Of a DNA stretch of 64,000 nt, positions 49,746-61,375 are shown one piece after another. The notes under the pieces are model-generated. The model made no database searches and had not been told where the DNA came from. It saw nothing but the letters and a program-made list of their open reading frames with translations. The stretch lies in contig JAXSPP010000001.1 in the NCBI GenBank assembly GCA_037927135.1, positions 256,001 through 320,000 of the forward strand. The letters run 5' to 3'. Both the position numbers and the translations under genes were made by a program. Origin of the DNA: Candidatus Pampinifervens sinense (GTDB lineage: Bacteria > Aquificota > Aquificia > Aquificales > Aquificaceae). Position 1 is the stretch's first letter. Each line of letters starts with the position of its first letter.

Positions 49746-51776
49746 CTATACAGAAAAATCCAAAAGCCTCAGAGTCTCTCCAGATAACCTATCCCTGTTT
49801 TCCCATGCCCAGTTTTGAAGCTCCCAAAGGCTTACCATAAGCTCCATCCTGCCCACAGACCTGTTATACTCTTTTACAAGGCTTGCAAGCCTTTTTGCCT
49901 CCTCTTCCGAAAGACCCAAATTGACCTTTCTGCTAATATACTCTTCAAGCCAAAACTTTAACCTCTCATCGCCAAGGTTTATTCCAAGGCCTTCCGCCTT
50001 CTTTAACAGCTCTTCCACTTTCTCCAAAGGTGCCACCTCTTTTAGCAAAAGGTAAAGCCTTAGCTTAAGGTAGTCCTTTACCCTTGACTTTAAAAGATTA
50101 TCGCATTCAAAGGGGCTTCCCTTGGCATAAAGGATCAGGTTTTCAAATAGATGTTCGTAGCTCTCTTCAAACTCCACATCCTCTTTAAAGTATTCCATGG
50201 CCCAGCCCTTTAGTAGCCAGCCAAGCAAAGGCTGTGGAATCCTATCGGTGCTAAAATCTTTGAGGTCCTCCTCCTCATAAAACTCTTCTTCTGTCTCCTC
50301 ATCCTTTAAAAAGACCCTCCAAGGCTCAAAGCCCTCCACCTTGTAATAAAACTTTCCAAGCCTTCCCTCCTGTGGTATAAGGTCGGAAAGCTCAAGGATC
50401 ACTATGGACCTTATTAGGTCCCTCTCTGATACCACATGAGGTAAGACAAGCTTTTGCCAAACACCAAAGCCGTTGCCATAGACCTGCACGTTGCTTGGTG
50501 CATCAGAAAGGATGTCTAAAAAAGCTTTTTCTACAGACCTGTCGCCAAGTAGGTCTATGGCCCTTTTGGCAAAAAGAAGGTTTTTTACCGCCTCTATGCC
50601 CGATATGTCTGCAAAGAACCAGCCATCGGAAGAAAAAGCATAGCTCACATACTTGTAAGCGTAGAGTAGTCTAAGAAGCTTCCTCTTTTCCTCCGGGCTT
50701 ACATGGCCCTTAAGATGCCTTTTGAAATAATCTTCCTTTGACCCTCCCATTAGGACCTCTACAAAGTCAAAGAGGGCCTCCTTTGGGTCAAGGGTGTGTT
50801 GAGAAAGAACATCAAAAAGCCTTTCCTTTACCTTGGACCTTAGGACTTCAAGGGCTTCCCTTAAAGGCTTTCTCCACTTTTGGTGCCAGCCTGGCTCTCC
50901 TCCCGTAGAACATCCACAGTCAGACCTCCACCTTTCCACACCGTGGGCACAGCTCCAAGAGGTGTATTCGTTTATATCCGCCTCACCCTCTGGATGTAGG
51001 CTTTCATAGACCTTTTCAAGGGTGCTAATGTTTGGATGGTTTTCCAAAAGGTAGGCAAGGCCCATCTCTCCAAACTTTTTGTGGTGGCCAAAGGTTTCAC
51101 CATCAAGGGCTATAAGGGTTATGCCCTTCCTGTCCCTTGTTCTCCTTATTACCTCATCCATATGGTTTATCAGCTCTCCAAAGGCTATGCCATGGGACAG
51201 CTCTCCATCGTAGACAAAGATGTCTATGTGGCCCTCCGGAAGGTGGTGCCTCAGATAGTTGCCCTTTGTCTTTACCTGATGGGGTGCAAGGATGGTGTAT
51301 TTTATGCCGTGTTTTACAAGGAGGGATAGGGTCCTTTTGTCTACCGCTAGCTCTGGAAGCCAAAAGCCTTTTGGCCTTCTTCCAAAGACCTTTTCAAAGG
51401 CCCTTATGCCCCAAACTATCTGAACCTCCCTGTCTTCCTCCGGGTCAAGGGGCAGTATGGTGTGGTTAAAACCGCTGGCTATTGCATTTTGGCCTGCCCT
51501 TTTTAGCCTTTCCACAAACCAAGGCCTTTCCTTCAAAAGCCAAGAGAGTAAGCTGTAGGTGAAGTCAAAGCTTATGCCCTGGTAGTTGTTGACCACCTTT
51601 AGGACCTTTCCATCCCTTGTATAATGGGCGTACATGTTGGGAAGGTAGGACTCTCTAAAGATCCTTTCGTTCCAGTTTTCAAAGGGCATGGCGGATGGCT
51701 CTGTAGGAACTAAGCCAAGGTATGGGTTTTCCCTAGGTGGCTGATGAAAATGGCAATGAACGCAGAAGAAGTTCAT
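49746..51776 (-). CDS. Glycoside hydrolase family 57 (DUF3536-type)
   Basis: HCHFHQPPRENP, GFWLPE, DGETFGHH, SWSCAHGVERW motifs. Confidence 0.9.
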   Translation of the reverse strand: MNFFCVHCHFHQPPRENPYLGLVPTEPSAMPFENWNERIFRESYLPNMYAHYTRDGKVLKVVNNYQGISFDFTYSLLSWLLKERPWFVERLKRAGQNAIASGFNHTILPLDPEEDREVQIVWGIRAFEKVFGRRPKGFWLPELAVDKRTLSLLVKHGIKYTILAPHQVKTKGNYLRHHLPEGHIDIFVYDGELSHGIAFGELINHMDEVIRRTRDRKGITLIALDGETFGHHKKFGEMGLAYLLENHPNISTLEKVYESLHPEGEADINEYTSWSCAHGVERWRSDCGCSTGGEPGWHQKWRKPLREALEVLRSKVKERLFDVLSQHTLDPKEALFDFVEVLMGGSKEDYFKRHLKGHVSPEEKRKLLRLLYAYKYVSYAFSSDGWFFADISGIEAVKNLLFAKRAIDLLGDRSVEKAFLDILSDAPSNVQVYGNGFGVWQKLVLPHVVSERDLIRSIVILELSDLIPQEGRLGKFYYKVEGFEPWRVFLKDEETEEEFYEEEDLKDFSTDRIPQPLLGWLLKGWAMEYFKEDVEFEESYEHLFENLILYAKGSPFECDNLLKSRVKDYLKLRLYLLLKEVAPLEKVEELLKKAEGLGINLGDERLKFWLEEYISRKVNLGLSEEEAKRLASLVKEYNRSVGRMELMVSLWELQNWAWENRDRLSGETLRLLDFSV

Positions 51777-52723
51777 ACCTCCACAAAGGCTCCCATCTTT
51801 TCAAACTTTTTTATCCTATCTTCCACAATTTCCTCCGGCTTTAATCTCAAGAGGTCCCTTAGGTGCCTCCTTAAGAAGAACTTTAAAATCCTTGCGCTCC
51901 TTCTGTGGTCCCAATGGGAGGCTCCAAAGGGCTCGGGAATTATCTGGTCTATCACTCCAAGCTTTAAAAGGTCTTGGGCTGTAAGCTTTAGGGCTTTTGA
52001 GGCCTCCTTTACCTTGCTTTGGTCCTTCCAGAGGATGGCCGCACAGCCTTCTGGCGAGATAACAGAGTATATGGCATTCTCCAGCATTAGAACTCTGTTG
52101 GCCACCCCCAAGGCAAGGGCTCCGCCAGACCCACCTTCACCTATGATAACCGCTATGGTAGGAACTTTTAAGTAGCCAAAGATATACAGGCTTTGGGCTA
52201 TGGCTCTTGATTGCCCCCTCTCTTCCGCACCTATGCCCGGGTATGCCCCCGGCGTATCTATAAAGGTTATTATGGGCATGCCGTATTTTTCCGCCAGCTC
52301 TGCCACCCTTATGGCCTTCCTATAGCCTTCTGGGTGTGGCATGCCAAAGTTTCTCTCCATCTTTTCCTTTGTTGTCCTTCCCTTTTCTTGTCCTATTAGG
52401 GCCACAGGCATGTGGTCAAAGTAGGCAAAGCCGGCCATTATGGCCTTGTCATCCCCAAAACATCTGTCTCCGTGGAGTTCTATAAAGTTTTTGAAGATAA
52501 GGTTTATGTAGTCTATGGTGTGGGGCCTTTGGGGGTGCCTTGCAAGGAGAACCCTCTCCCAAGGGTCAAGCTTAGAATAGACCTCTTTTGCTTTCTTCTT
52601 AAACTCCCTTTGTAGCTTTCTTAGCTCCTTCTCCTTTTCTTTTTCTCCAAGGTCATAGAGCCTTTTTAGCTGTTCTATTTTTTGATAGAGCTCCTGGAGG
52701 TCCTTTTCAAAGTCTAAGAACAT
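51773..52723 (-). CDS. accA: Acetyl-CoA carboxylase carboxyltransferase alpha subunit
   Basis: ELHGDR, FGMPHPEGYRKA, DTPGAYPG, GEGGSGGAL, SPEGCAAIL motifs; ATG 52723. Confidence 0.97.
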   Translation of the reverse strand: MFLDFEKDLQELYQKIEQLKRLYDLGEKEKEKELRKLQREFKKKAKEVYSKLDPWERVLLARHPQRPHTIDYINLIFKNFIELHGDRCFGDDKAIMAGFAYFDHMPVALIGQEKGRTTKEKMERNFGMPHPEGYRKAIRVAELAEKYGMPIITFIDTPGAYPGIGAEERGQSRAIAQSLYIFGYLKVPTIAVIIGEGGSGGALALGVANRVLMLENAIYSVISPEGCAAILWKDQSKVKEASKALKLTAQDLLKLGVIDQIIPEPFGASHWDHRRSARILKFFLRRHLRDLLRLKPEEIVEDRIKKFEKMGAFVEV

Positions 52724-52739
52724 CAAAAAAATTATACCA

Positions 52740-52815
52740 TGGTAGGCGCGGGCGGATTTGAACCGCCGACCTCTGGCGTGTCGGGCCAGCGCTCTGCCAG
52801 CTGAGCTACGCGCCT
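52740..52815 (-). tRNA. tRNA-Val(GAC), 76 nt, encoded CCA, C33
   Basis: AGGCGCGTAGCTCAGCTGGCAGAGCG-CTGGC-CCGACAC-GCCAG-AGGTCGGCGGTTCAAATCCGCCCGCGCCTACCA. Confidence 0.96.
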
Positions 52816-52820
52816 TTAGA

Positions 52821-52834
52821 GTTATAATTATAAC
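52821..52834. promoter_or_regulatory. Palindromic bidirectional -10 element for tRNA-Val and gmk
   Basis: GTTATAATTATAAC is a perfect palindrome with TATAAT on both strands. Confidence 0.7.
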
Positions 52835-53470
52835 ATGCTATTCGTACTTTCTGCACCTTCCGGAACGGGCAAGACCACTGTGGCAGAAAGGTTGCTTAAA
52901 AGCTGTCCCGGTGTAAGAAGAATAATAACGGCCACCACAAGGTCCAAAAGGGAAGGGGAAGTGCATGGAGTGGATTACCTTTTTATAAGCTATGAGGAGT
53001 TTAAAGAGAAGATAGAGGAAGGCTACTTTTTGGAGTATGCGGAGGTTTACGGCCACTACTATGGCACTCCAAAGGACCAGGTGATAAGGAACGAAGAAGA
53101 AGGCGTAGACTCTCTTTTGGTCATAGATGTGCAAGGGGCAAAGAAGGTAAGGGAAACTTACAAGGATTCTATCCTCATCTTTTTGATGCCACCGAGCCTT
53201 GAAGAACTAAGAAGAAGACTGCTTACAAGGGGCTACGGCACAGAGAACTTGGAAAAGAGGCTAAGGAAGGCAGAAGAAGAAATAGCCTGTGCCAAGTACT
53301 TTGATTATATAGTGGTGAACGAGTTTATAGACAAGACGGTGGAAGCCCTGTGCCACATAATCAAGGCACAAAGGCATAAAAAGGAAAACTTCTTTAAAAG
53401 GCCTACCCTTTTGGATGAAGAGATTCTTAGAATTATAAAAGAGGGCCAGTGCCACACCTTTGAAAGATGA
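52835..53470 (+). CDS. gmk: Guanylate kinase
   Basis: APSGTGKT, TTRSKREGEVHGVDYLF, YYGT, IDVQGA motifs. Confidence 0.96.
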   Translation: MLFVLSAPSGTGKTTVAERLLKSCPGVRRIITATTRSKREGEVHGVDYLFISYEEFKEKIEEGYFLEYAEVYGHYYGTPKDQVIRNEEEGVDSLLVIDVQGAKKVRETYKDSILIFLMPPSLEELRRRLLTRGYGTENLEKRLRKAEEEIACAKYFDYIVVNEFIDKTVEALCHIIKAQRHKKENFFKRPTLLDEEILRIIKEGQCHTFER

Positions 53471-53736
53471 TGGACATTGAAAAGGCTAAAGAGAAGCTAA
53501 GGGCTATGGGCTATGAAGGCATATACCTCTGGCAGGACCCACCGGGCACTTACTATGATTGGCACACTCACCCAGAGGACGAGGTGCGATACATTCTGGA
53601 GGGTGAGATGACCATAGGGACTGAGGAAGGGGTTTATCATCTAAAGGCTGGGGACCTATTAGAAGTGAAGGCTGGCACAAGGCATTGGGCAAAGACGGAG
53701 AAGGGAGTGAAGTATCTTTGTGGGAGTAGGAGATAA
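53467..53736 (+). CDS. Small cupin protein
   Basis: WHTHPEDEVRYILEG...GDLLEVKAGTRH cupin motifs. Confidence 0.88.
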   Translation: MMDIEKAKEKLRAMGYEGIYLWQDPPGTYYDWHTHPEDEVRYILEGEMTIGTEEGVYHLKAGDLLEVKAGTRHWAKTEKGVKYLCGSRR

Positions 53737-53746
53737 TTAAAACCTT

Positions 53747-55324
53747 TTAGCCATATTTCTCCAGCCTTCCGTAGGTATAAACAAACTCTGCATCCACTTC
53801 CTTAGGCGCATCCTTTCTGTATTTGTTGACCGTATATACTATTACTCTGGCCCTATCTCTATTTAGATTAAGCACAGAATAGCCCCAGTTTTTCATATTG
53901 AGATGTTTTATCCAAGGGTTTTGTAGCATTTCTGCCCTTTCTACCTCTTCTATAGAAGTATAATTTGGCCAGTTTCTTTTCCACCAACCCATCTCTTTTG
54001 AATTAACAGAAGATATGGCTGGCGTCATAAACTCTGCACCAAGCACTTCCTTTGGCTCTTGATAGCTGTCTGGAATCTCCGCTATAAATGTAGCATGTCT
54101 GTCTCCGGTTGAGATTAGTAAGTTTTTCATGCCTTCCCTCTTTAAAAAGTCCAGTATTTTTTGCCTTTCGCCCGCATAACCATCCCAAGCATCCAAAGAA
54201 CCAAACTTGCCATCCACAAGGCTTTGAGAAAACTGCACATCATTGCCCCAAACCTTCCAAACAAACTTATCTTCTTTTAACTTTTTCAAGAACCATCTTA
54301 GTTGGTCTTGGCCAAGCATGGTAGTCCTATACTGTTCTGCACAGCCGGGTGCACCATACTTTCCTCTGCAAGGCTGTTTGTCTCTGTAGCTTCTTCCATC
54401 GGTCATTATAAGATGGGCCAAGCTTCCTATTTTAAAGTCGCGGTAGATGGTTATCCATAGTAAGGGGTCTCTGTTTTGAAAGTTTGTCTTTACTCTGGCT
54501 GGTATATACTCAAGCCAAGCCTTTATGGAATCCAGCCTAAGCTGTAGCAATTTTTCCCTTTCTCTGATGGGATAGTCTCCAATCCAGTATTCCCTTTGGT
54601 AATTGTAGTAGTAGTCGTTTAGAAACTCATGGTCATCCCAAGTGTGCACAAAGGTATGCATGGCTCTGGCAAGTCTGATGTCTGGGTCGGAAAGGTAGGT
54701 TCTGTATAAGTATCTATAATCTTCCAAGTTTTGGACTATGTTTGACCCTGACGGAAGCTCCAAAAGCCTGCCCGCCACCCTTGGTGGGCCGTATATCTTT
54801 TCGTATATAAAGTCTCCCAGATGAACCACCAATTGAAGGTCCTCTTGGGCCATATGCCTGTAGGCTGTAAAGTAGCCATCGGCGTAGTTCTGGCATGTGG
54901 CAAAGGCTATGCTTATATCTTGTGCCTCCTCTGGAAGAGTTTTTAACCTTCCTATCATAGAAGGCACATCTGCATAAACAAACCTGTAGTAATAGGTTCT
55001 TCCGGGTTGCAATTTTCCTTCCAGGTCTATCCTTACCGTGTGGTCATCTTTGGATGATATGCGGTCCCATGGTAGTCTTCCAGAAAATACAAGCCTTTTG
55101 AAGTCCATATCTTCCGATATTTGTAGGATTAGGTCCTTTTTCATCCTTTCATGCACCTTTGGGTTTATACGGGTCCAAAGGATGGCGCCGGTGTGCGTGG
55201 GGTCTGCGCTTGCCACACCTTGAGGGAATACCTCCTCCGTATCCATGGAAAAGCTAAGGCGGTTCAAGGACAAAAGCATTAGGGTGGCAAGGCTACCTTC
55301 CAAGAACTCCCTTCTTGTGATCAT
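53747..55324 (-). CDS. phoD: Tat-exported alkaline phosphatase D
   Basis: TRREFL twin-arginine signal; FPQGVASADP, HLGDFIYE, WDDHE, DAWDGY, TGDRH motifs. Confidence 0.93.
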   Translation of the reverse strand: MITRREFLEGSLATLMLLSLNRLSFSMDTEEVFPQGVASADPTHTGAILWTRINPKVHERMKKDLILQISEDMDFKRLVFSGRLPWDRISSKDDHTVRIDLEGKLQPGRTYYYRFVYADVPSMIGRLKTLPEEAQDISIAFATCQNYADGYFTAYRHMAQEDLQLVVHLGDFIYEKIYGPPRVAGRLLELPSGSNIVQNLEDYRYLYRTYLSDPDIRLARAMHTFVHTWDDHEFLNDYYYNYQREYWIGDYPIREREKLLQLRLDSIKAWLEYIPARVKTNFQNRDPLLWITIYRDFKIGSLAHLIMTDGRSYRDKQPCRGKYGAPGCAEQYRTTMLGQDQLRWFLKKLKEDKFVWKVWGNDVQFSQSLVDGKFGSLDAWDGYAGERQKILDFLKREGMKNLLISTGDRHATFIAEIPDSYQEPKEVLGAEFMTPAISSVNSKEMGWWKRNWPNYTSIEEVERAEMLQNPWIKHLNMKNWGYSVLNLNRDRARVIVYTVNKYRKDAPKEVDAEFVYTYGRLEKYG

Positions 55325-55326
55325 AT

Positions 55327-56076
55327 CTATCCTCCTCCAAGGCGGTAGTCTATTTCTATTTCAAGCTCCAAGGGGGCCTTTGGGGGTGGTGGAAGCTTGG
55401 CAAGGGACCTTAACATTCTTATGGTTCCTTCGTCCAAATACCTGCTTTGACTGCTCTTTATTATCCTTATATCTTCTATCCTTCCTTCCGAGTTTATCCT
55501 TAGCCTTACCACAAGAGTGCCTTCCTCACCCCTTCTTTTTGCCTCCTCTGGGTATCTTTTATTCCTCTCAATTATGGCCTTTACTTGACTGTAGTAGGCT
55601 ATCATTTGGTCCTTAGACTCTTCCTTTTTGGCCGTTGGTAGCTCCCTTTTGACCTGTGGCCTCTCTACCTGCGCTTCTTTTTGAGGCTTCTCTTGGCTTG
55701 TTTCCTTCTCTTTATTTGAAGTGTCTTCTTTTGTTTCTTCTCTGGCTGTAATTTGTGTTTGGGCCTTTTCTGCTATGGGTATGGCCTCCTTTGGTGGTGC
55801 CACAGGCTCTTGTCTTACTTCCTGCTTTTGGGGAACATTTTTTATAACCTTTTTAACCTCCTGCCTTTTGGGTGGTGTTTTTTGAGGTCTTGATTCTTTT
55901 GGGTTTGTAGTCTCCTGTGTGGGTGGTAGGGTGAGGATGATCTCTACGGGCTTGGATCCACCACTTGGAAAGGTCATTTTGCTAACAGACATAAGCCAAG
56001 AGATAACAAAGGAAGAGAGGAGGGAAAGGCTTATGGAAAGAGCAAGGGCTTTGGGCCTGTCTTCTCTGAGGATCAT
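55327..56076 (-). CDS. tonB: TonB energy transducer
   Basis: N-terminal TM, P/K/E-rich linker, YPEEAKRRGEEG and SSQSRYLD C-domain. Confidence 0.9.
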   Translation of the reverse strand: MILREDRPKALALSISLSLLSSFVISWLMSVSKMTFPSGGSKPVEIILTLPPTQETTNPKESRPQKTPPKRQEVKKVIKNVPQKQEVRQEPVAPPKEAIPIAEKAQTQITAREETKEDTSNKEKETSQEKPQKEAQVERPQVKRELPTAKKEESKDQMIAYYSQVKAIIERNKRYPEEAKRRGEEGTLVVRLRINSEGRIEDIRIIKSSQSRYLDEGTIRMLRSLAKLPPPPKAPLELEIEIDYRLGGG

Positions 56077-56495
56077 TTATTGTCGCCCACGATGCCTATG
56101 TTGTATATGCCCGATTCCTTTATGGCATCTATAACCTCTATAACTTTTTGCAGGTTCACTTCCTTATCTCCCACTATTAGAACGGTGGCCTTTTCTTTAT
56201 CTTGCACATTCCTTAGGTAGTTTTTGAGGGCCTGTAGACCCTCCTCCCTGTTTTCCAGAAGGACTCTTCCATCTTTGGATATATACACTTTGATAGGTTC
56301 TCTGAGGTCCTTCCTCTGCACCGTGGAAGAGGTAGGCACTTTTATCTCTTGTAGCATCATGGGAAAAACGTTTAGGGTATAGACCATGAAAAAGACCAAC
56401 AAAAACAGCATTACGTCTATCATAGGTATTATTTGTATTTCTTCCTTCTGATGTTCCTCCTCCATAAGCAGTAAAAGTAAAGCCTTTTTATTCAT
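56073..56495 (-). CDS. exbD: ExbD/TolR biopolymer transport protein
   Basis: IIPMIDVMLFLLVFFMV TM with the conserved Asp; GDKEV motif. Confidence 0.92.
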   Translation of the reverse strand: MNKKALLLLLMEEEHQKEEIQIIPMIDVMLFLLVFFMVYTLNVFPMMLQEIKVPTSSTVQRKDLREPIKVYISKDGRVLLENREEGLQALKNYLRNVQDKEKATVLIVGDKEVNLQKVIEVIDAIKESGIYNIGIVGDNK

Positions 56496-56931
56496 TGCCT
56501 TCCTCCAAAAGGGACCTTAGAAGCTCAAGCTTTACTTCCTCTTTTATGGAAGATACTTTGGAATGGAAGAACTTGAAGAAGAAGTAAAACCAGAGGGACA
56601 TGGCTATACCGAGGGCTGTGGCCCAAAGGGCTGTGCCTATGGCTGCGCTTATCTCACCTGCACCGCTCACACCTTTTGCGGCAAGCTGTTGAAAGGCTAT
56701 TATAAGGGCCAATACGGTGCCCAAAAGGCCCACTATGGGAGAGACGGTGGCTGCAAAGTCCAAAAACCATAGCCTCCTTCTTATAGACTCTGCATGCTCA
56801 AGCCTTTTGTCCGCTGGACTGTTGGGCCTTCTTTTAAGCTGGAAGAAGTTCATAGCCACTAAATAGTTGCCAAAGGTGAAGATCAAAAGCATCAGTCCAA
56901 AAACTCCCTTATGGATAAGATCCAGCAACAT
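56488..56931 (-). CDS. exbB: Short ExbB/TolQ/MotA proton-channel protein
   Basis: SPIVGLLGTV and AIGTALWATALG motifs. Confidence 0.9.
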   Translation of the reverse strand: MLLDLIHKGVFGLMLLIFTFGNYLVAMNFFQLKRRPNSPADKRLEHAESIRRRLWFLDFAATVSPIVGLLGTVLALIIAFQQLAAKGVSGAGEISAAIGTALWATALGIAMSLWFYFFFKFFHSKVSSIKEEVKLELLRSLLEEGNE

Positions 56932-56933
56932 GC

Positions 56934-59192
56934 TTAAAACCTCCCTCTTAGTCCTACAGAAAAGGTGAAGGGAGCGCCCACATAGTAGGTTCCAGAGGTT
57001 TCACCCGGCGATATCCTGCCTATGTACTTTTTATCCGTTAGGTTTATCACATCAAAGCAGAGGGTGAAGTTCTTTGTTATTCTTCTGTCCACAGAAAGGT
57101 TTATAAGGGTGTAAGAGCTAACCTTTTGTTTGTTGTCTACCGTTCCATACCTTGAGCCTATGTACTGCAAAGAAGGCCTTATATTAAAGCCAAATATTCT
57201 GTAATCTATGCCAAGCTTAAACATATGTTTTGGTGTGTCTGGAACTTGGTTGCCGCTTATACCACACACAGGATTGCCAGTAGAAAGGGTGGTGCAATCA
57301 TCTTTGAATTCTGCCACGTTGTAGGAGTAAGAGCCATAAAGGCTTAGGTCTTTGAAGGGTTTTGCACCCACTTCCAGTTCAAAGCCGTAGGCCTTTACCT
57401 TTCCTGCATTCCTAAGGTAGACCAAGTTCGGGTCGTTGGGGTCTGCAATCCTTATAAGCCTGTTTTTGTAATCGGTGTAATAGATGGCTGGCACCACATA
57501 AAGCTTGTCAAAGTCAAAACGCACGCCAAGGTCGTAGTTAACCGACTCTTCCGGCTTTAGCTGGTTTATAACAAACTGGGCATCTACATTGTTTGGTATG
57601 GTGCCTATAAAGTTGGGTGGCACTCTGAAGTTTTGGGAGAAGGCAAAATATGGGTATATGTGGTCGGTGAGTTTGTAACCTACTCCAAAGTTAAACAACA
57701 CCTTCCTGTAGGTTTTTGAGTAGGAAAGTCTTGGGTCCTTGGTGAGGTTTGGATGGTCAAATATATCATCCTCGGGCATGTAGGGAAGGCCTGTAGTGTT
57801 GTAGTTGGTAAATTCTCTCTTTACCTGTGCAAACCTTATGCCTGCGTTTATGTCAAGCCTGCCCAAAAGCTCGGGGGCTTCATAGAAGATGAAGGGTGTG
57901 TTAGTGGTGGTTATGGTCTTTTGGATATAGTTGTACCTAAAGCTGGGCGTGCCTAAGGTATTAATAAGCAGAGTGTAAGAGCCGTCGGGCTGTACCCTCA
58001 CTGGGAAGGAGGGTTGCCACTGTTTTAGCTCTGCCCTCTCATACCAATAGCCCAAGGTAAACTCACCATAAGAACTTTTAAAGTTTAGGTTTAGGATGGC
58101 TCCGGGCCTGTCGGTGTAGTTAAAGGATTCTCTGAAGGCTATGTAGGTGTTGCCACCGCTTGTGAAAGTTGTGGCGCTTGTTCCACTTCCTCTTCCTATC
58201 CACATGTAGGGCTTAAAGGTAAGCTTTAGCCAGTTGGTTATATCAAGCTCTACGTTGGCCCTTAGCTGTTGGTTGTCGTAAGGGTTTTTGTAGAACTTGT
58301 AATAGGCTACGTTGTTGTCTCTTATGGTCTGGTTATTATGCACAAGGCCGTTTCCTCCGGGGAATATAAGGCTTGGGCTGTAATCAAACCTTCTGAACTG
58401 GTCCAAGTTTTGGGCCTGCTGGTAGTTTAGCCCTCTGTAGAAGTAGTTTAGCTGGGTGTTTTTGTCGTAGTAGAACTCCCAAAAGAGCCTGCCCAAGTTT
58501 TGGGTAATGCCTATGGTATAGTGGTCTCTAAAGTCTGGATGCTTGCCCGGCCCTTTCCACTTGTCCGCCTCCGTATGGGAGTAGGAGCCAAAGGCCCTAA
58601 TACCAAAGGGTAGCCTACCCGTATCCACCCTGAAGAAATACTTTCTAAACTCGTTGGTGCCAAACTTTGGGAAGATGGTAATACCAAACTCGTTGGCGGG
58701 TGGCTTTGTCCTTATCCTTATGGCTCCTCCCACCTCTGTATAGAAGGGGCTCTTTTTGCTGACCGCACCCCTCTCTATGGTAATGCTCTCTAAGTTTTCT
58801 ACGTCCGCATACTCGTGTGGGTATATGGCAAAGTTTCCAGAATCGTTTAGTGGCATATCATCTATGCTTATGCCTATCTGGGTGTTATCAAAGCCTCTGA
58901 GCCTAACGGAACCACCACCAAGGCCGTAGGCATCGTCCGTTTGAACGTTCAAGGAAGGTGTTAGCTCTATAGCTCTAAACACATTCACTCCGCCTGCGCC
59001 AGTACCCCTTTGAAGCTACTTTTCCTTTACCGTTGTCTCCGTCTTTGGCTTTGCCTTTTTCCTTTCCACTGGTATTTCAGGAGCCTCCCTTTCCTTTTCC
59101 TCTTGCACCTGTATTTTTATCCTTGGAGCCTCTTGAGCAATGGCCACACCCACACAGAAGATACCGCTCAGAAGCACAATCCTTTTTGTCAT
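56934..59192 (-). pseudogene. TonB-dependent receptor with an in-frame TAG at codon 59
   Basis: Strong SD (AAGGAGGT) and signal peptide from ATG 59192; TAG at 59016-59018 is in frame with the 684-aa ORF; plug motif VRLRGF, KPEES, NLTDKKY, C-terminal Phe. Confidence 0.88.
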
Positions 59193-59541
59193 GGCAATCT
59201 ACCTCCTTGTTGAAAGTTATTGTTTCTTCCCACATTAACCGAGCTTGGACTTAGGCCTATCATACAAGGGCTTCCGTCTTCTCTCTCAAGGCTTAGGGCC
59301 ACATTTCCGCTAAAACCAAACTGGGGAGTGATGGTTAGGGTGGTGTTTGTACTTTGTCCTGCTTGCACACTCAAAGTGTTGGGGTTTAGGCTTATGCTAA
59401 AGTCTGGCTTGGGGTTCTCCAAAAGGGAGGAGCTCACTCCGCCAAAGCCTCCCCCACAGGAAGATACGAGCAAAGCAACGGTCAGAATAAACAAACTGTA
59501 TATTACTCTAACCTAAACAAACTGTATATTACTCTAACCAT
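59189..59541 (-). pseudogene. Lipoprotein with an Ig-like beta-rich domain, frameshifted by a 26-bp duplication
   Basis: AGGAGG SD then ATG 59541; removing the duplication gives MVRVIYSLFILTVALLVSSCGGG (lipobox), then DFSISLNPNTLSVQAGQSTNTTLTITP. Confidence 0.78.
59488..59539. repeat. Perfect 26-bp tandem duplication
   Basis: taaacaaactgtatattactctaacc occurs at 59488-59513 and 59514-59539. Confidence 0.97.
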
Positions 59542-59565
59542 GGCACACCTCCTACCTTTACCATA

Positions 59566-59620
59566 AGCATATCAACCTTTTGTTAAGACTGGGTTAAGGT
59601 TTGGTTAAGATTTTGTTAAG
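59566..59620 (-). promoter_or_regulatory. Pho-box-like array (4 x CTTAAC at 11-bp period) with a TATGCT -10
   Basis: GTTAAG starts at 59582, 59593, 59604 and 59615; the -10 candidate is at 59566-59571; the operon ends in phoD. Confidence 0.78.
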
Positions 59621-59646
59621 AGGCTTTTTGGTATAATTGAGCTTAT

Positions 59647-60531
59647 ATGCTTATAAAAAACCTTGACCTATGGCCCTACACCACCATACGCATAGGGGGC
59701 AAGGCTCTGTATTTTTGTGAGCCAAAGGACCTTGAAGAACTGAAGTATGCCATCTTTTTTGCCTTGGATAAATCCTTACCCATCTTTATCCTTGGCAGGG
59801 GTTCTAACACCATCTTTGGTGATTTTGAAGGTCTGGTTATAAGCATGAGAAGGTTTGAAGGCTTTGAGGTAAGGAGGGAAGGGGACCTTTTTTATATTAC
59901 AGCCCAGGCTGGAGTGCTTCTTTCCAAGCTTGTGTCCTTTTCTTTGAAAGAAGGCCTTGAAGGCTTCTATAGGCTTGTGGGCTTTCCCGCCACCGTTGGT
60001 GGTGCCATAGCCATGAACGCAGGAGCCTTTGGCTATGAAATAAGCAAACATCTCAAAGAGGTGGTCTTTTTGGATTGGGAAGGGAGGCTTCAGAGGGCAA
60101 GGAAAGAAGAGCTTAGCTTTTCTTACAGGTCCTCTCCCTTTCCAGAGCTTGGGGTCGTCCTTGCTGGGACTTTTGTGGTGTCAAAGGCAAGGGGGAATAT
60201 AGTGGAGGAATATAAGGCCATAAGGGAGAAGAGGGCAAGCAAACAGCCCTTAAACCTTCCCACCTGCGGGTCTACCTTTAAGAACCCGCCAGGGCACTTT
60301 GCCGGCAGGCTTTTAGAAGAGGTGGGGATGAAGGGCTACAGGGTGGGGGATGTGGCCTTCTCAGAAAAGCATGCCAACTTTTTGGTAAACCTTGGAAGGG
60401 GCACCTACCAGGAGGTGCTTAAAATAATCCAAGAGGCAAAGAGAAGGGTTTTTGAAAGCTTTGGTATAAGCTTGGAAGAGGAGGTAAGGCTAATTGAAAG
60501 TGGTTGTGCTTATGGGAGGAAGGTCCAGTGA
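59647..60531 (+). CDS. murB: UDP-N-acetylmuramate dehydrogenase
   Basis: RIGGKA, GRGSN, GGAIAMNAGA, CGSTFKNP, KHANF, LEEEV motifs. Confidence 0.96.
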   Translation: MLIKNLDLWPYTTIRIGGKALYFCEPKDLEELKYAIFFALDKSLPIFILGRGSNTIFGDFEGLVISMRRFEGFEVRREGDLFYITAQAGVLLSKLVSFSLKEGLEGFYRLVGFPATVGGAIAMNAGAFGYEISKHLKEVVFLDWEGRLQRARKEELSFSYRSSPFPELGVVLAGTFVVSKARGNIVEEYKAIREKRASKQPLNLPTCGSTFKNPPGHFAGRLLEEVGMKGYRVGDVAFSEKHANFLVNLGRGTYQEVLKIIQEAKRRVFESFGISLEEEVRLIESGCAYGRKVQ

Positions 60532-61363: not shown

Positions 61364-61375
61364 AGAAAAAGTGCT

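Follow-up and report, generated by a model that had tools for sequence, protein, structure and literature searches.

A PhoD-linked TonB receptor operon behind a candidate Pho box in Candidatus Pampinifervens sinense, with its receptor gene interrupted

A coupled operon of TonB and PhoD genes

The subject of this report is an operon in Candidatus Pampinifervens sinense, a hot-spring bacterium with a genome of 1.55 Mb, that lies near the end of a 64,000-nt window (the whole stretch of DNA that was analysed). Between a cupin gene (53467-53736, + strand) and murB (59647-60531, + strand) there are six open reading frames (ORFs), all on the minus strand, for a lipoprotein, a TonB-dependent receptor (TBDR), ExbB, ExbD, TonB and a PhoD phosphatase, and ahead of them stands an array of four CTTAAC repeats (Table 1; labels in G, L, X and P denote related genomes, loci, public runs and protein entries). 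A first-pass annotation of these letters had described six tightly coupled minus-strand genes, proposed that they form a system for scavenging organophosphates, and named the families of the receptor, ExbB, ExbD, TonB and PhoD. The ORF coordinates bear out the arrangement and Pfam searches the five family names; every protein of the operon could be assigned to a family, the lipoprotein excepted.

Table 1. Features of the operon, in window coordinates
Feature	Position	Strand	Details
PhoD-family phosphatase/phosphodiesterase	53747-55324	-	525 aa; PF09423 + PF16655 (Pfam)
TonB	55327-56076	-	249 aa; PF03544 E 1.7e-18; TIGR01352 67.2 bits vs cut-off 27.1
ExbD	56073-56495	-	140 aa; PF02472 E 9.6e-28
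ExbB, short form	56488-56931	-	147 aa; PF01618 E 2.6e-19
TBDR gene	56934-59192	-	752 codons; PF07715 Plug + PF00593 barrel
Premature TAG stop, codon 59 of TBDR (GAG, Glu, in relatives)	59016-59018	-	translation and run comparison
Lipoprotein remnant ORF	59189-59494	-	101 aa, TTG start, lipobox LVSSC, Ig-like N-terminal part
Original lipoprotein ATG (59539-59541), then 26-nt tandem duplication (59514-59539, 59488-59513)	59488-59541	-	one copy in G015
Leader with ribosome-binding site GGAGGTG ahead of original lipoprotein ATG	59542-59581	-	sequence reading
Pho-box-like array, CTTAAC x4, 11-bp period, CTTAACAAAATCTTAACCAAACCTTAACCCAGTCTTAAC	59582-59620	-	exact match

The genes are packed very closely, with a 4-nt overlap (ATGA) between lipoprotein and TBDR, a 2-nt gap between TBDR and ExbB, overlaps of 8 nt between ExbB and ExbD and of 4 nt between ExbD and TonB, and a 2-nt gap between TonB and PhoD, and since every junction is a gap of 2 nt or an overlap of 4-8 nt, the six are read as translationally coupled. 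The ExbB, ExbD and TonB families are mutually adjacent, and TonB itself has the expected parts, i.e., an N-terminal membrane anchor, a Pro/Lys/Glu-rich spacer and a TonB_C domain. In NCBIfam no operon protein, ExbB, ExbD and TonB included, reaches a curated equivalog cut-off. Pfam found no SusD or carboxypeptidase-regulatory-like domain among the operon proteins, and neither the ORF list nor Pfam revealed an anti-sigma or extracytoplasmic function (ECF) sigma gene in the operon. Scans for sigma-70 promoters (6 sites in the operon versus 7.9 in shuffles) and for terminators (9 versus 9.4) gave no excess, and no internal promoter stands out in the former. The promoter-proximal leader is one base different from that of G015, a complete and near-identical genome, and contains no site in the sigma-70 consensus scan, as might be expected of an activator-dependent promoter.

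The PhoD catalytic domain (PF09423) scores 273.6 bits against a cut-off of 27 (E 3.2e-81) and its PhoD_N domain (PF16655) 70.8 bits against 30. The protein matches B. subtilis PhoD (PDB 2YEQ) with an E of 3.9e-61 over residues 33-439, and the stretches FA(T/S)CQ, HLGD(F/Y)IYE, TWDDHE, WDGY and TGDxHA are conserved in register; the NCBIfam model NF058638 gives 265.7 against a cut-off of 1000, so that it is not the Bacillus equivalog itself. A twin-arginine (Tat) motif, MITRREFL, opens the protein (N-terminus MITRREFLEGSLATLMLLSL, read off the translation), in line with the Tat-PhoD of the first-pass annotation. The likeness to the B. subtilis enzyme is one of sequence homology, the same two Pfam domains, a Tat signal and, probably, a place in a Pho regulon. 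The differences are that the host here is diderm, so that the enzyme should stay in the periplasm, and that its gene is translationally coupled to that of TonB. There is only one PhoD in the genome.

An orthologue of the receptor (E up to 1e-100) was found in 6 of 41 related genomes, adjoining PhoD each time. A scan of genome contigs with a four-sequence alignment produced eight named loci, in Aquificota only (Aquificaceae metagenome-assembled genomes, Ca. Pampinifervens, Hydrogenobacter, Thermocrinis and Sulfurihydrogenibium yellowstonense), and in all seven with downstream DNA the receptor is followed by ExbB-ExbD-TonB-PhoD, the eighth ending at a contig edge. A metagenome scan gave the wider picture: the same four genes are present at 15 of the 22 loci with a receptor of at least 54% identity, and the other 7 end before the place of PhoD. 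The linkage that the first-pass annotation had proposed to check is therefore conserved, with the TBDR-ExbB-ExbD-TonB-PhoD core in the same order in every Aquificota locus with enough DNA. Across the loci compared, the module contains no periplasmic binding protein or inner-membrane permease.

The CTTAAC array and a candidate Pho regulon

That the array is no accident of composition is indicated by 100 dinucleotide-preserving shuffles of the window, none of which held a match even at 3 mismatches. Genome-wide, a score of at least 20/24 is attained at three loci only: this array (24/24), the region upstream of phoX (PF05787, E 3.3e-150; L034:3178-5007) and the region upstream of an operon of DUF2334 and two GT4 glycosyltransferases (L035:1014-5044), for which the synthesis of phosphorus-free, phosphorus-sparing glycolipids is a plausible role. 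The exact two-repeat unit CTTAAC-N5-CTTAAC occurs at 8 positions in the genome, three of them overlapping registers of this array. It is also found 60 nt upstream of pstSCAB (consensus CTTAACCAAATCTTAACAA), upstream of a roadblock/GTPase/HEAT/EAL-GGDEF cluster that leads into pstS (L038:749-6174), upstream of two small ORFs and a P-type ATPase, at C2:152014 within the 3' end of the second glycosyltransferase ORF, and at C4:100665 near an OmpR-family regulator gene. A PhoB-like regulator is encoded in the genome at 121079-121750 of G000 contig 2, its best models being PhoB models with scores below their cut-offs (229.8 versus 270 and 225.4 versus 296.2), as are a PhoU and, following it, a HAMP-HisKA kinase.

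The repeat is also carried by relatives. Directly upstream of receptor genes that have no lipoprotein gene before them, TTAAC repeats at 11-bp spacing number four in L041 and L042, two in L043 and L044 and three in L047, and they stand at -53/-42 of the receptor in 9 of 16 metagenome rows of the PhoD clade. Before the stand-alone phoD of G003 there are two repeats, at -39/-28, and before that of G011 a CTTAAT pair followed by TATAAT; in AT-rich loci of Hydrogenothermaceae type the motif is degenerate (TTAAA/TTAAC) and was not counted. The Pho boxes of E. coli and Bacillus are likewise direct repeats of an 11-nt format. Direct repeats of 11 nt are described as a form of PhoP/PhoB sites (PMC2275107). 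Because pstSCAB and phoX have this repeat ahead of them as well, the CTTAAC array is very probably the Pho box of this organism, as the first-pass description of a Pho-box-like array had anticipated, and pstSCAB, phoX, phoD, the glycosyltransferase operon, the P-type ATPase and the EAL-GGDEF cluster together make up a candidate Pho regulon.

Lesions in the receptor and lipoprotein genes

In the frame of the receptor gene a signal peptide is followed by a Lys/Glu-rich linker, the conserved stretch TETTVKE (a putative TonB box), the plug and the barrel, and it is between the signal peptide/TonB-box region and the plug, just past TETTVKE, that the frame is broken by a TAG. The glutamate of this codon is invariant in 4 of 4 aligned orthologues, and the codon is GAG in G015, in L040 and in more distant orthologues. 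The longest uninterrupted receptor ORF (56934-58988) has a GTG start and is without a signal peptide, i.e., a continuous gene with both signal peptide and TonB box is absent here, though G015, L040 and others have one. In this genome the receptor is almost certainly null, and a stop so early in the second gene of the operon may also lower the expression of the genes downstream. The TBDR of the first-pass annotation stands as a family assignment and almost certainly falls as a working gene.

The lipoprotein, which that annotation had counted as a part of the system, proved to be a frameshifted and truncated remnant. The 26-nt duplication shifts the frame and leads to a stop after 12 codons, and the remnant ORF aligns to residues 8-102 of the 443-aa P0122 (23 member sequences on 13 contigs), residues 103-443 being lost at a junction at about 59209-59212. 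Full-length P0122 combines a lipobox and an Ig-like domain with a proline linker and a Ycf48-like propeller, and scores 34.6 bits with DUF6242 and weakly with PSII_BNR. There are three alleles in the public data: the full length of 443 aa, an in-frame deletion of residues 77-245 in G015 (L017:3169-3993), and the deletion of residues 103-443 in the window (59189-59541) and in run X2. In L040:1-5240, an otherwise near-identical operon, the 5' part has been replaced by duplicated transposase-like fragments, a 602-aa ORF and parts of an ATPase-like gene, and the last 49 codons alone remain. The lipoprotein has been seen in this species only and is absent from most orthologous loci; it lies outside the conserved module.

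An error of assembly or sequencing was considered as a source of the TAG and the duplication, and it is countered by contigs of public runs. Among such runs, eighteen (11 studies) contain half or more of the sampled words of 58850-59650, and four of these were compared, on DNA contigs only. X1 is the best-matching run and possibly the source sample, so that its reads support the lesions rather than confirm them independently: its contigs have A at 59018 of the + strand (TAG) at a depth of 233.9, the 26-nt duplication at 221.4, and the deletion junction at 59209, in a 59-nt contig, at 213.8. A minor X1 contig (32.1x) has some 1014 extra nt at 59209, so that the X1 population holds both the short and a longer form of the lipoprotein gene. 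X2, X5 and X8, which come from three other studies, have C at 59018 of the + strand (GAG) and a single copy of the 26-mer. X2 has one contig across the whole stretch, with the short lipoprotein allele; a contig of X8 has the longer form with about 1014 extra nt at 59209; and in X5 a loose end at 59209 matches the 3' end of the G015 lipoprotein gene. The lesions are features of one population and not slips of assembly, and intact alleles of the receptor circulate elsewhere, i.e., in X2, X5, X8, G015, G013 and L040-L046. Because the receptor and lipoprotein lesions also stand in the X1 contigs, the uptake part of the system is probably dead and its function lost in this population, with only ExbB, ExbD, TonB and PhoD intact.

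The history of the locus has left a further trace. The 9.5 kb of 49754-59212, from a GH57-like gene through accA, gmk, the cupin gene and phoD to the TBDR gene, are 98.9% identical to G015, identity is 90-97% in the flanks and 83-97% in neighbouring stretches of the window, and the boundary falls at the deletion junction inside the lipoprotein gene. This suggests a recent exchange, by recombination or transfer of the locus between lineages.

Such observations raise the possibility that the operon is a decaying remnant, i.e., a dispensable and recently exchanged accessory locus that is on its way out, in which gene order is a matter of history and at most PhoD works here. The premature stop of the TBDR and the twofold damage to the lipoprotein gene would fit it, as would the deletion form of the G015 lipoprotein (without residues 77-245), the near-identity to G015, the interruption of a P-type ATPase gene that is intact in G015, G006 and G003, and the state of PhoD in relatives: frameshifted near residue 375 in G006 (L025 1596-3169), interrupted by one in-frame TAA in G038 (contig 1, 767286-768839), and present as a C-terminal fragment of 209 aa only in G016 (contig 1, 686172-686780). 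Decay accounts for this genome, however, and not for an order of genes conserved across two Aquificota families; intact copies are common (the runs and genomes listed above), and here ExbB, ExbD, TonB and PhoD are undamaged and 99-100% identical to those of G015 (100% for ExbB). As an explanation of the locus as a whole, we consider decay improbable.

The P-type ATPase just mentioned (E1-E2_ATPase + Hydrolase; L035:6109-8184, which is G000 contig 2, 153108-155183) is the one linked to a Pho box. Its frame is interrupted behind codon 415 by a TAG (L035:6937-6939) and is open, at 702-704 aa, in the three relatives, so that this is a second nonsense codon in a Pho-box-linked operon. It prompted the idea that amber codons are recoded or read through in this organism, an idea that was rejected as unsupported, since TAG is in no excess at in-frame junctions of long open segments (32 of 112, versus 561 of 2115 in the background); the GAG at the receptor codon in relatives also speaks against it. 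A comparison with the whole of G015 turned up some nine internal breaks among 1120 comparable ORFs, about four of them nonsense codons and five frameshifts, as counted with a crude ORF caller and with end-proximal matches filtered by eye. An enrichment of gene breaks in Pho-box operons (two nonsense codons and the lipoprotein) is suggestive and post hoc, and is not claimed as a result.

The possible cargo of the receptor and its known counterparts

The gene neighbourhoods of related receptors bear on what the intact receptor might carry. Receptors of a sister clade (40-46% identity, on low-GC contigs) have a PF04185 phosphoesterase beside them in L072, L074 and L077. In L072 the order is TBDR-ExbB-ExbD-TonB and then an 869-aa PF04185 phosphoesterase, in L074 the PF04185 protein lies about 1 kb downstream of the receptor and in L077 upstream of it, and both L075 and L081 break off behind a second TBDR with ExbBD-TonB. 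Next to the receptors of L072 and L074, the genes (a GT4 pair, an EAL-GGDEF protein, two small ORFs and an HMA_2 P-type ATPase) are the kinds of genes that bear Pho boxes in the present genome. The replacement of PhoD by the unrelated PF04185 enzyme favours the use of phosphoesters.

Fifty more distant relatives (26-31% identity) were grouped through tblastn searches with neighbour probes: 16 have 5'-nucleotidase-family genes or PPK1 beside them, 13 have metal-type genes (FecCD/Peripla_BP_2/ABC, DUF4198/CbiK, FmdE/ZnuA) there and 3 are near Porin_O_P and molybdate-type binding proteins, with 18 left without a label. At the loci linked to 5'-nucleotidases (L087, L089, L092, L097, L103, L122 and L123) there are often Sel1-repeat proteins and PPK1 in the vicinity, and L123 also holds PhoX, PhoD and PstS; this clade looks like a further pairing of receptor and phosphoesterase, outside Aquificota. 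In a quick maximum-likelihood tree of 65 receptors (LG+G4; the outgroup branches are very long), the clades linked to 5'-nucleotidases (23 rows, support 100), to PhoD/PF04185 (20 rows, support 99) and to metal-type genes (20 rows, support 100) are separate from one another, and our receptor is outside the siderophore and B12 groups. The metal-linked clade carries its own binding protein and permease (FecCD, Peripla_BP_2, ABC), which the PhoD-linked module never does, and the lack of an inner-membrane transporter in the latter accords with a substrate consumed in the periplasm.

On the strength of what is observed at these loci, namely the gene content, the coupling, the common repeat, the conserved order and the hydrolase swap, we lean, if only slightly, towards a Pho-controlled and TonB-energised import of a phosphorus-bearing substrate that is hydrolysed by periplasmic PhoD. 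At low phosphate a PhoB-like response regulator would bind the four CTTAAC repeats and switch on one transcript for a surface lipoprotein (in this species only), the TBDR, its ExbB-ExbD-TonB energiser and a Tat-exported PhoD. The receptor, driven by proton-motive force relayed through TonB, would then pull a scarce phosphorus substrate into the periplasm—nucleotides or oligonucleotides, phosphodiesters and condensed phosphate being the candidates—where PhoD would free orthophosphate for entry by way of PstSCAB, a transporter whose genes have the same box ahead of them. The inducing role of phosphate limitation, the inward direction of transport and the nature of the substrate are predictions from gene context.

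Several facts weigh against this proposal. PhoD does not need the receptor, since it is present in 14 relatives and 8 of the 14 are without one. Of the 6 genomes with the module, 3 have an interruption in one of its genes (that of the TBDR here and that of PhoD in G006 and G038), and damage of such frequency can be argued to mark a dispensable function. The highest family scores of the receptor are with siderophore-type models, and its best solved relatives are siderophore or pyrroloquinoline quinone (PQQ) receptors, over the last 200-odd residues only. In the tree the PhoD clade is sister to the metal clade (SH-aLRT 91 unstarred) and not to the 5'-nucleotidase clade, a grouping of the two phosphoesterase-linked clades being not rejected (p-AU 0.118). 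PhoD is an iron- and calcium-dependent enzyme, which makes a supply of metal a coherent alternative. Lastly, two TBDRs of Burkholderia are described as depleted, and not induced, under phosphate limitation (PMC13700237).

The metal alternative, which the first-pass annotation had itself raised, is that the receptor imports iron, another metal or a ferric-phosphate complex during phosphate starvation, either to metallate the induced PhoD and PhoX or to take up Fe(III) chelated by phosphate. It gains from those partial matches to siderophore-type models and structures and from the sister clade with its FecCD/Peripla_BP_2, DUF4198/CbiK and FmdE/ZnuA genes, and also from the fact that phoX and phoD are both under the box, PhoX and PhoD both being metal-dependent. 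A cluster of the same composition in Acidithiobacillus has been read in this way by Osorio et al. (2008; PMC2631029). What counts against it is, in the first place, that our module is without the inner-membrane metal transporter or binding protein of the metal-linked clade. In addition, the exchange of PhoD for PF04185 preserves phosphoester hydrolysis and not a cofactor need specific to PhoD. The Tat pathway exports folded proteins, and a Tat signal would thus imply that metal in the periplasm alone would not load PhoD. Moreover, the genome has a better candidate for iron among its three TBDRs, a second TBDR with ExbBD-TonB and a Fer4_5 protein on contig 6.

Nor was the siderophore or B12 receptor under riboswitch control encountered that the first-pass annotation had named as a counter-indication. 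The receptor falls short of the cut-offs of the siderophore model TIGR01783 (159.3 bits versus 223.5, and in the C-terminal half only), the haem receptor model TIGR01785 (75.2 versus 316.85) and the B12 receptor model TIGR01779 (40.3 versus 599.7), and no Rfam family reaches its gathering score in 53000-60200, with two chance-level hits elsewhere (E 0.65 and 0.78). The genome has two Fur-family genes, and the best match in the operon to the E. coli Fur 19-mer, a consensus that may not be that of the host, has 8 mismatches, compared with 7-8 at the other two TBDR loci. Weakened by the points of the preceding paragraph, the metal alternative is in our view unlikely, yet it is the main rival.

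A receptor that senses phosphate status, or that helps PhoD or the lipoprotein to reach the surface, is a further alternative, and one we hold to be very improbable. It has a precedent of a sort in Caulobacter crescentus, in which the gene of the phosphate-starvation-induced lipoprotein ElpS lies beside that of the TBDR CC0171, and where the two are discussed as a possible pair for sensing or activation (Le Blastier et al. 2010; PMC2996285). Our receptor, however, has no N-terminal signalling domain (Pfam found plug and barrel only), merely a short Lys/Glu-rich linker, anti-sigma and ECF sigma genes are not in the operon, and the lipoprotein is missing from most orthologous loci. The Caulobacter pair resembles ours in that, as that paper reports, lipoprotein and TBDR co-occur across genomes and are linked to alkaline phosphatase activity. 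Its TBDR is constitutive and its cluster has neither PhoD nor ExbBD-TonB, and the lipoprotein here is species-specific and decaying; the likeness is one of context.

For import followed by hydrolysis, the reading that we prefer, there are two closer counterparts. The first is the 'FecA3' cluster of Acidithiobacillus, known from comparative genomics only, which unites a TBDR, ExbB-ExbD-TonB, a surface-layer protein and PhoD (Osorio et al. 2008, BMC Microbiol 8:203; PMC2631029). The parts are the same and lie in one cluster, an extra surface protein is present and, as described there, PhoB-type regulators are near; on the other hand, Acidithiobacillus belongs to another phylum and the likeness is one of parts list. 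Its authors proposed an uptake of phosphate-chelated Fe(III) under Fur and PhoB (PMC2631029), whereas here a Pho-box array is common to pstS and phoX and the PF04185 swap points to the use of phosphoesters.

The second is the phosphate utilisation system (PUS) type of Flavobacterium, where the concept has been established by experiment at the level of induction: outer-membrane TonB-dependent transporters and lipoproteins respond to phosphate depletion, and periplasmic phosphomono- and diesterases are co-localised with them (Lidbury et al. 2020, ISME J; PMC8115612). There, too, import and then periplasmic hydrolysis were proposed, for a substrate that is likewise not known. These systems consist of SusC/SusD-type pairs with ECF sigma/FecR regulators, and a dedicated ExbBD-TonB is not among the components described in the accessible text (PMC8115612), in contrast to the classical 22-strand-type TBDR without SusD, the energiser of its own, the PhoB-type box and the PhoD hydrolase of the present operon. 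The locus is functionally like PUS without being a member, as it has no SusCD pair and its full-length lipoprotein is DUF6242/Ycf48-like. The first-pass annotation knew of no characterised example in this group, and a literature search indeed found no published Aquificota case of such a receptor-phosphatase system or Pho box; the architecture itself, however, has precedents in Acidithiobacillus and Flavobacterium. As a hypothesis, then, the earlier reading was largely right, and the locus is a compact, PhoD-based and self-energised case of a known, if poorly characterised, kind.

It is also possible, and we put it forward tentatively, that the wider receptor family, marked by the motif S-[YFL]-S-[HY]-x-x-A-[DN]-K-W, is a TonB-dependent importer of nucleotides, phosphoesters or condensed phosphate. 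The basis for this is that two of its three clades adjoin PhoD, PF04185 or 5'-nucleotidase genes without an inner-membrane transporter, and that PPK1, PhoX and PstS are often near. If true, the family would be the first of its sort to be defined beyond the SusCD type, and the hot-spring populations with GAG and with TAG would be a natural knock-out pair.

What the TBDRs of phosphate starvation carry is a general question: for Flavobacterium and Caulobacter, induction or linkage has been established, but no substrate. In Aquificota the module could hardly be more compact, with receptor, energiser and hydrolase in one coupled transcript under a readable box, in small genomes with three receptors and with thermostable proteins that suit biochemistry and structure work. 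The analysis also yields a candidate Pho box and a first candidate Pho regulon for this group. Given its broken receptor, the present strain should not be annotated as a user of the system.

Two observations from outside the operon may be added. The contig 6 TonB system mentioned above (L036:7608-13217) is made up of an ExbB of 141 aa, an ExbD of 128, a TBDR of 704, a Fer4_5 membrane protein of 468 and a TonB of 250, and no box was found at it. Farther along the window, at 61364-61372, about 760 bp that lie between ddl and the next gene in G015 (L017:584-1345) are missing.

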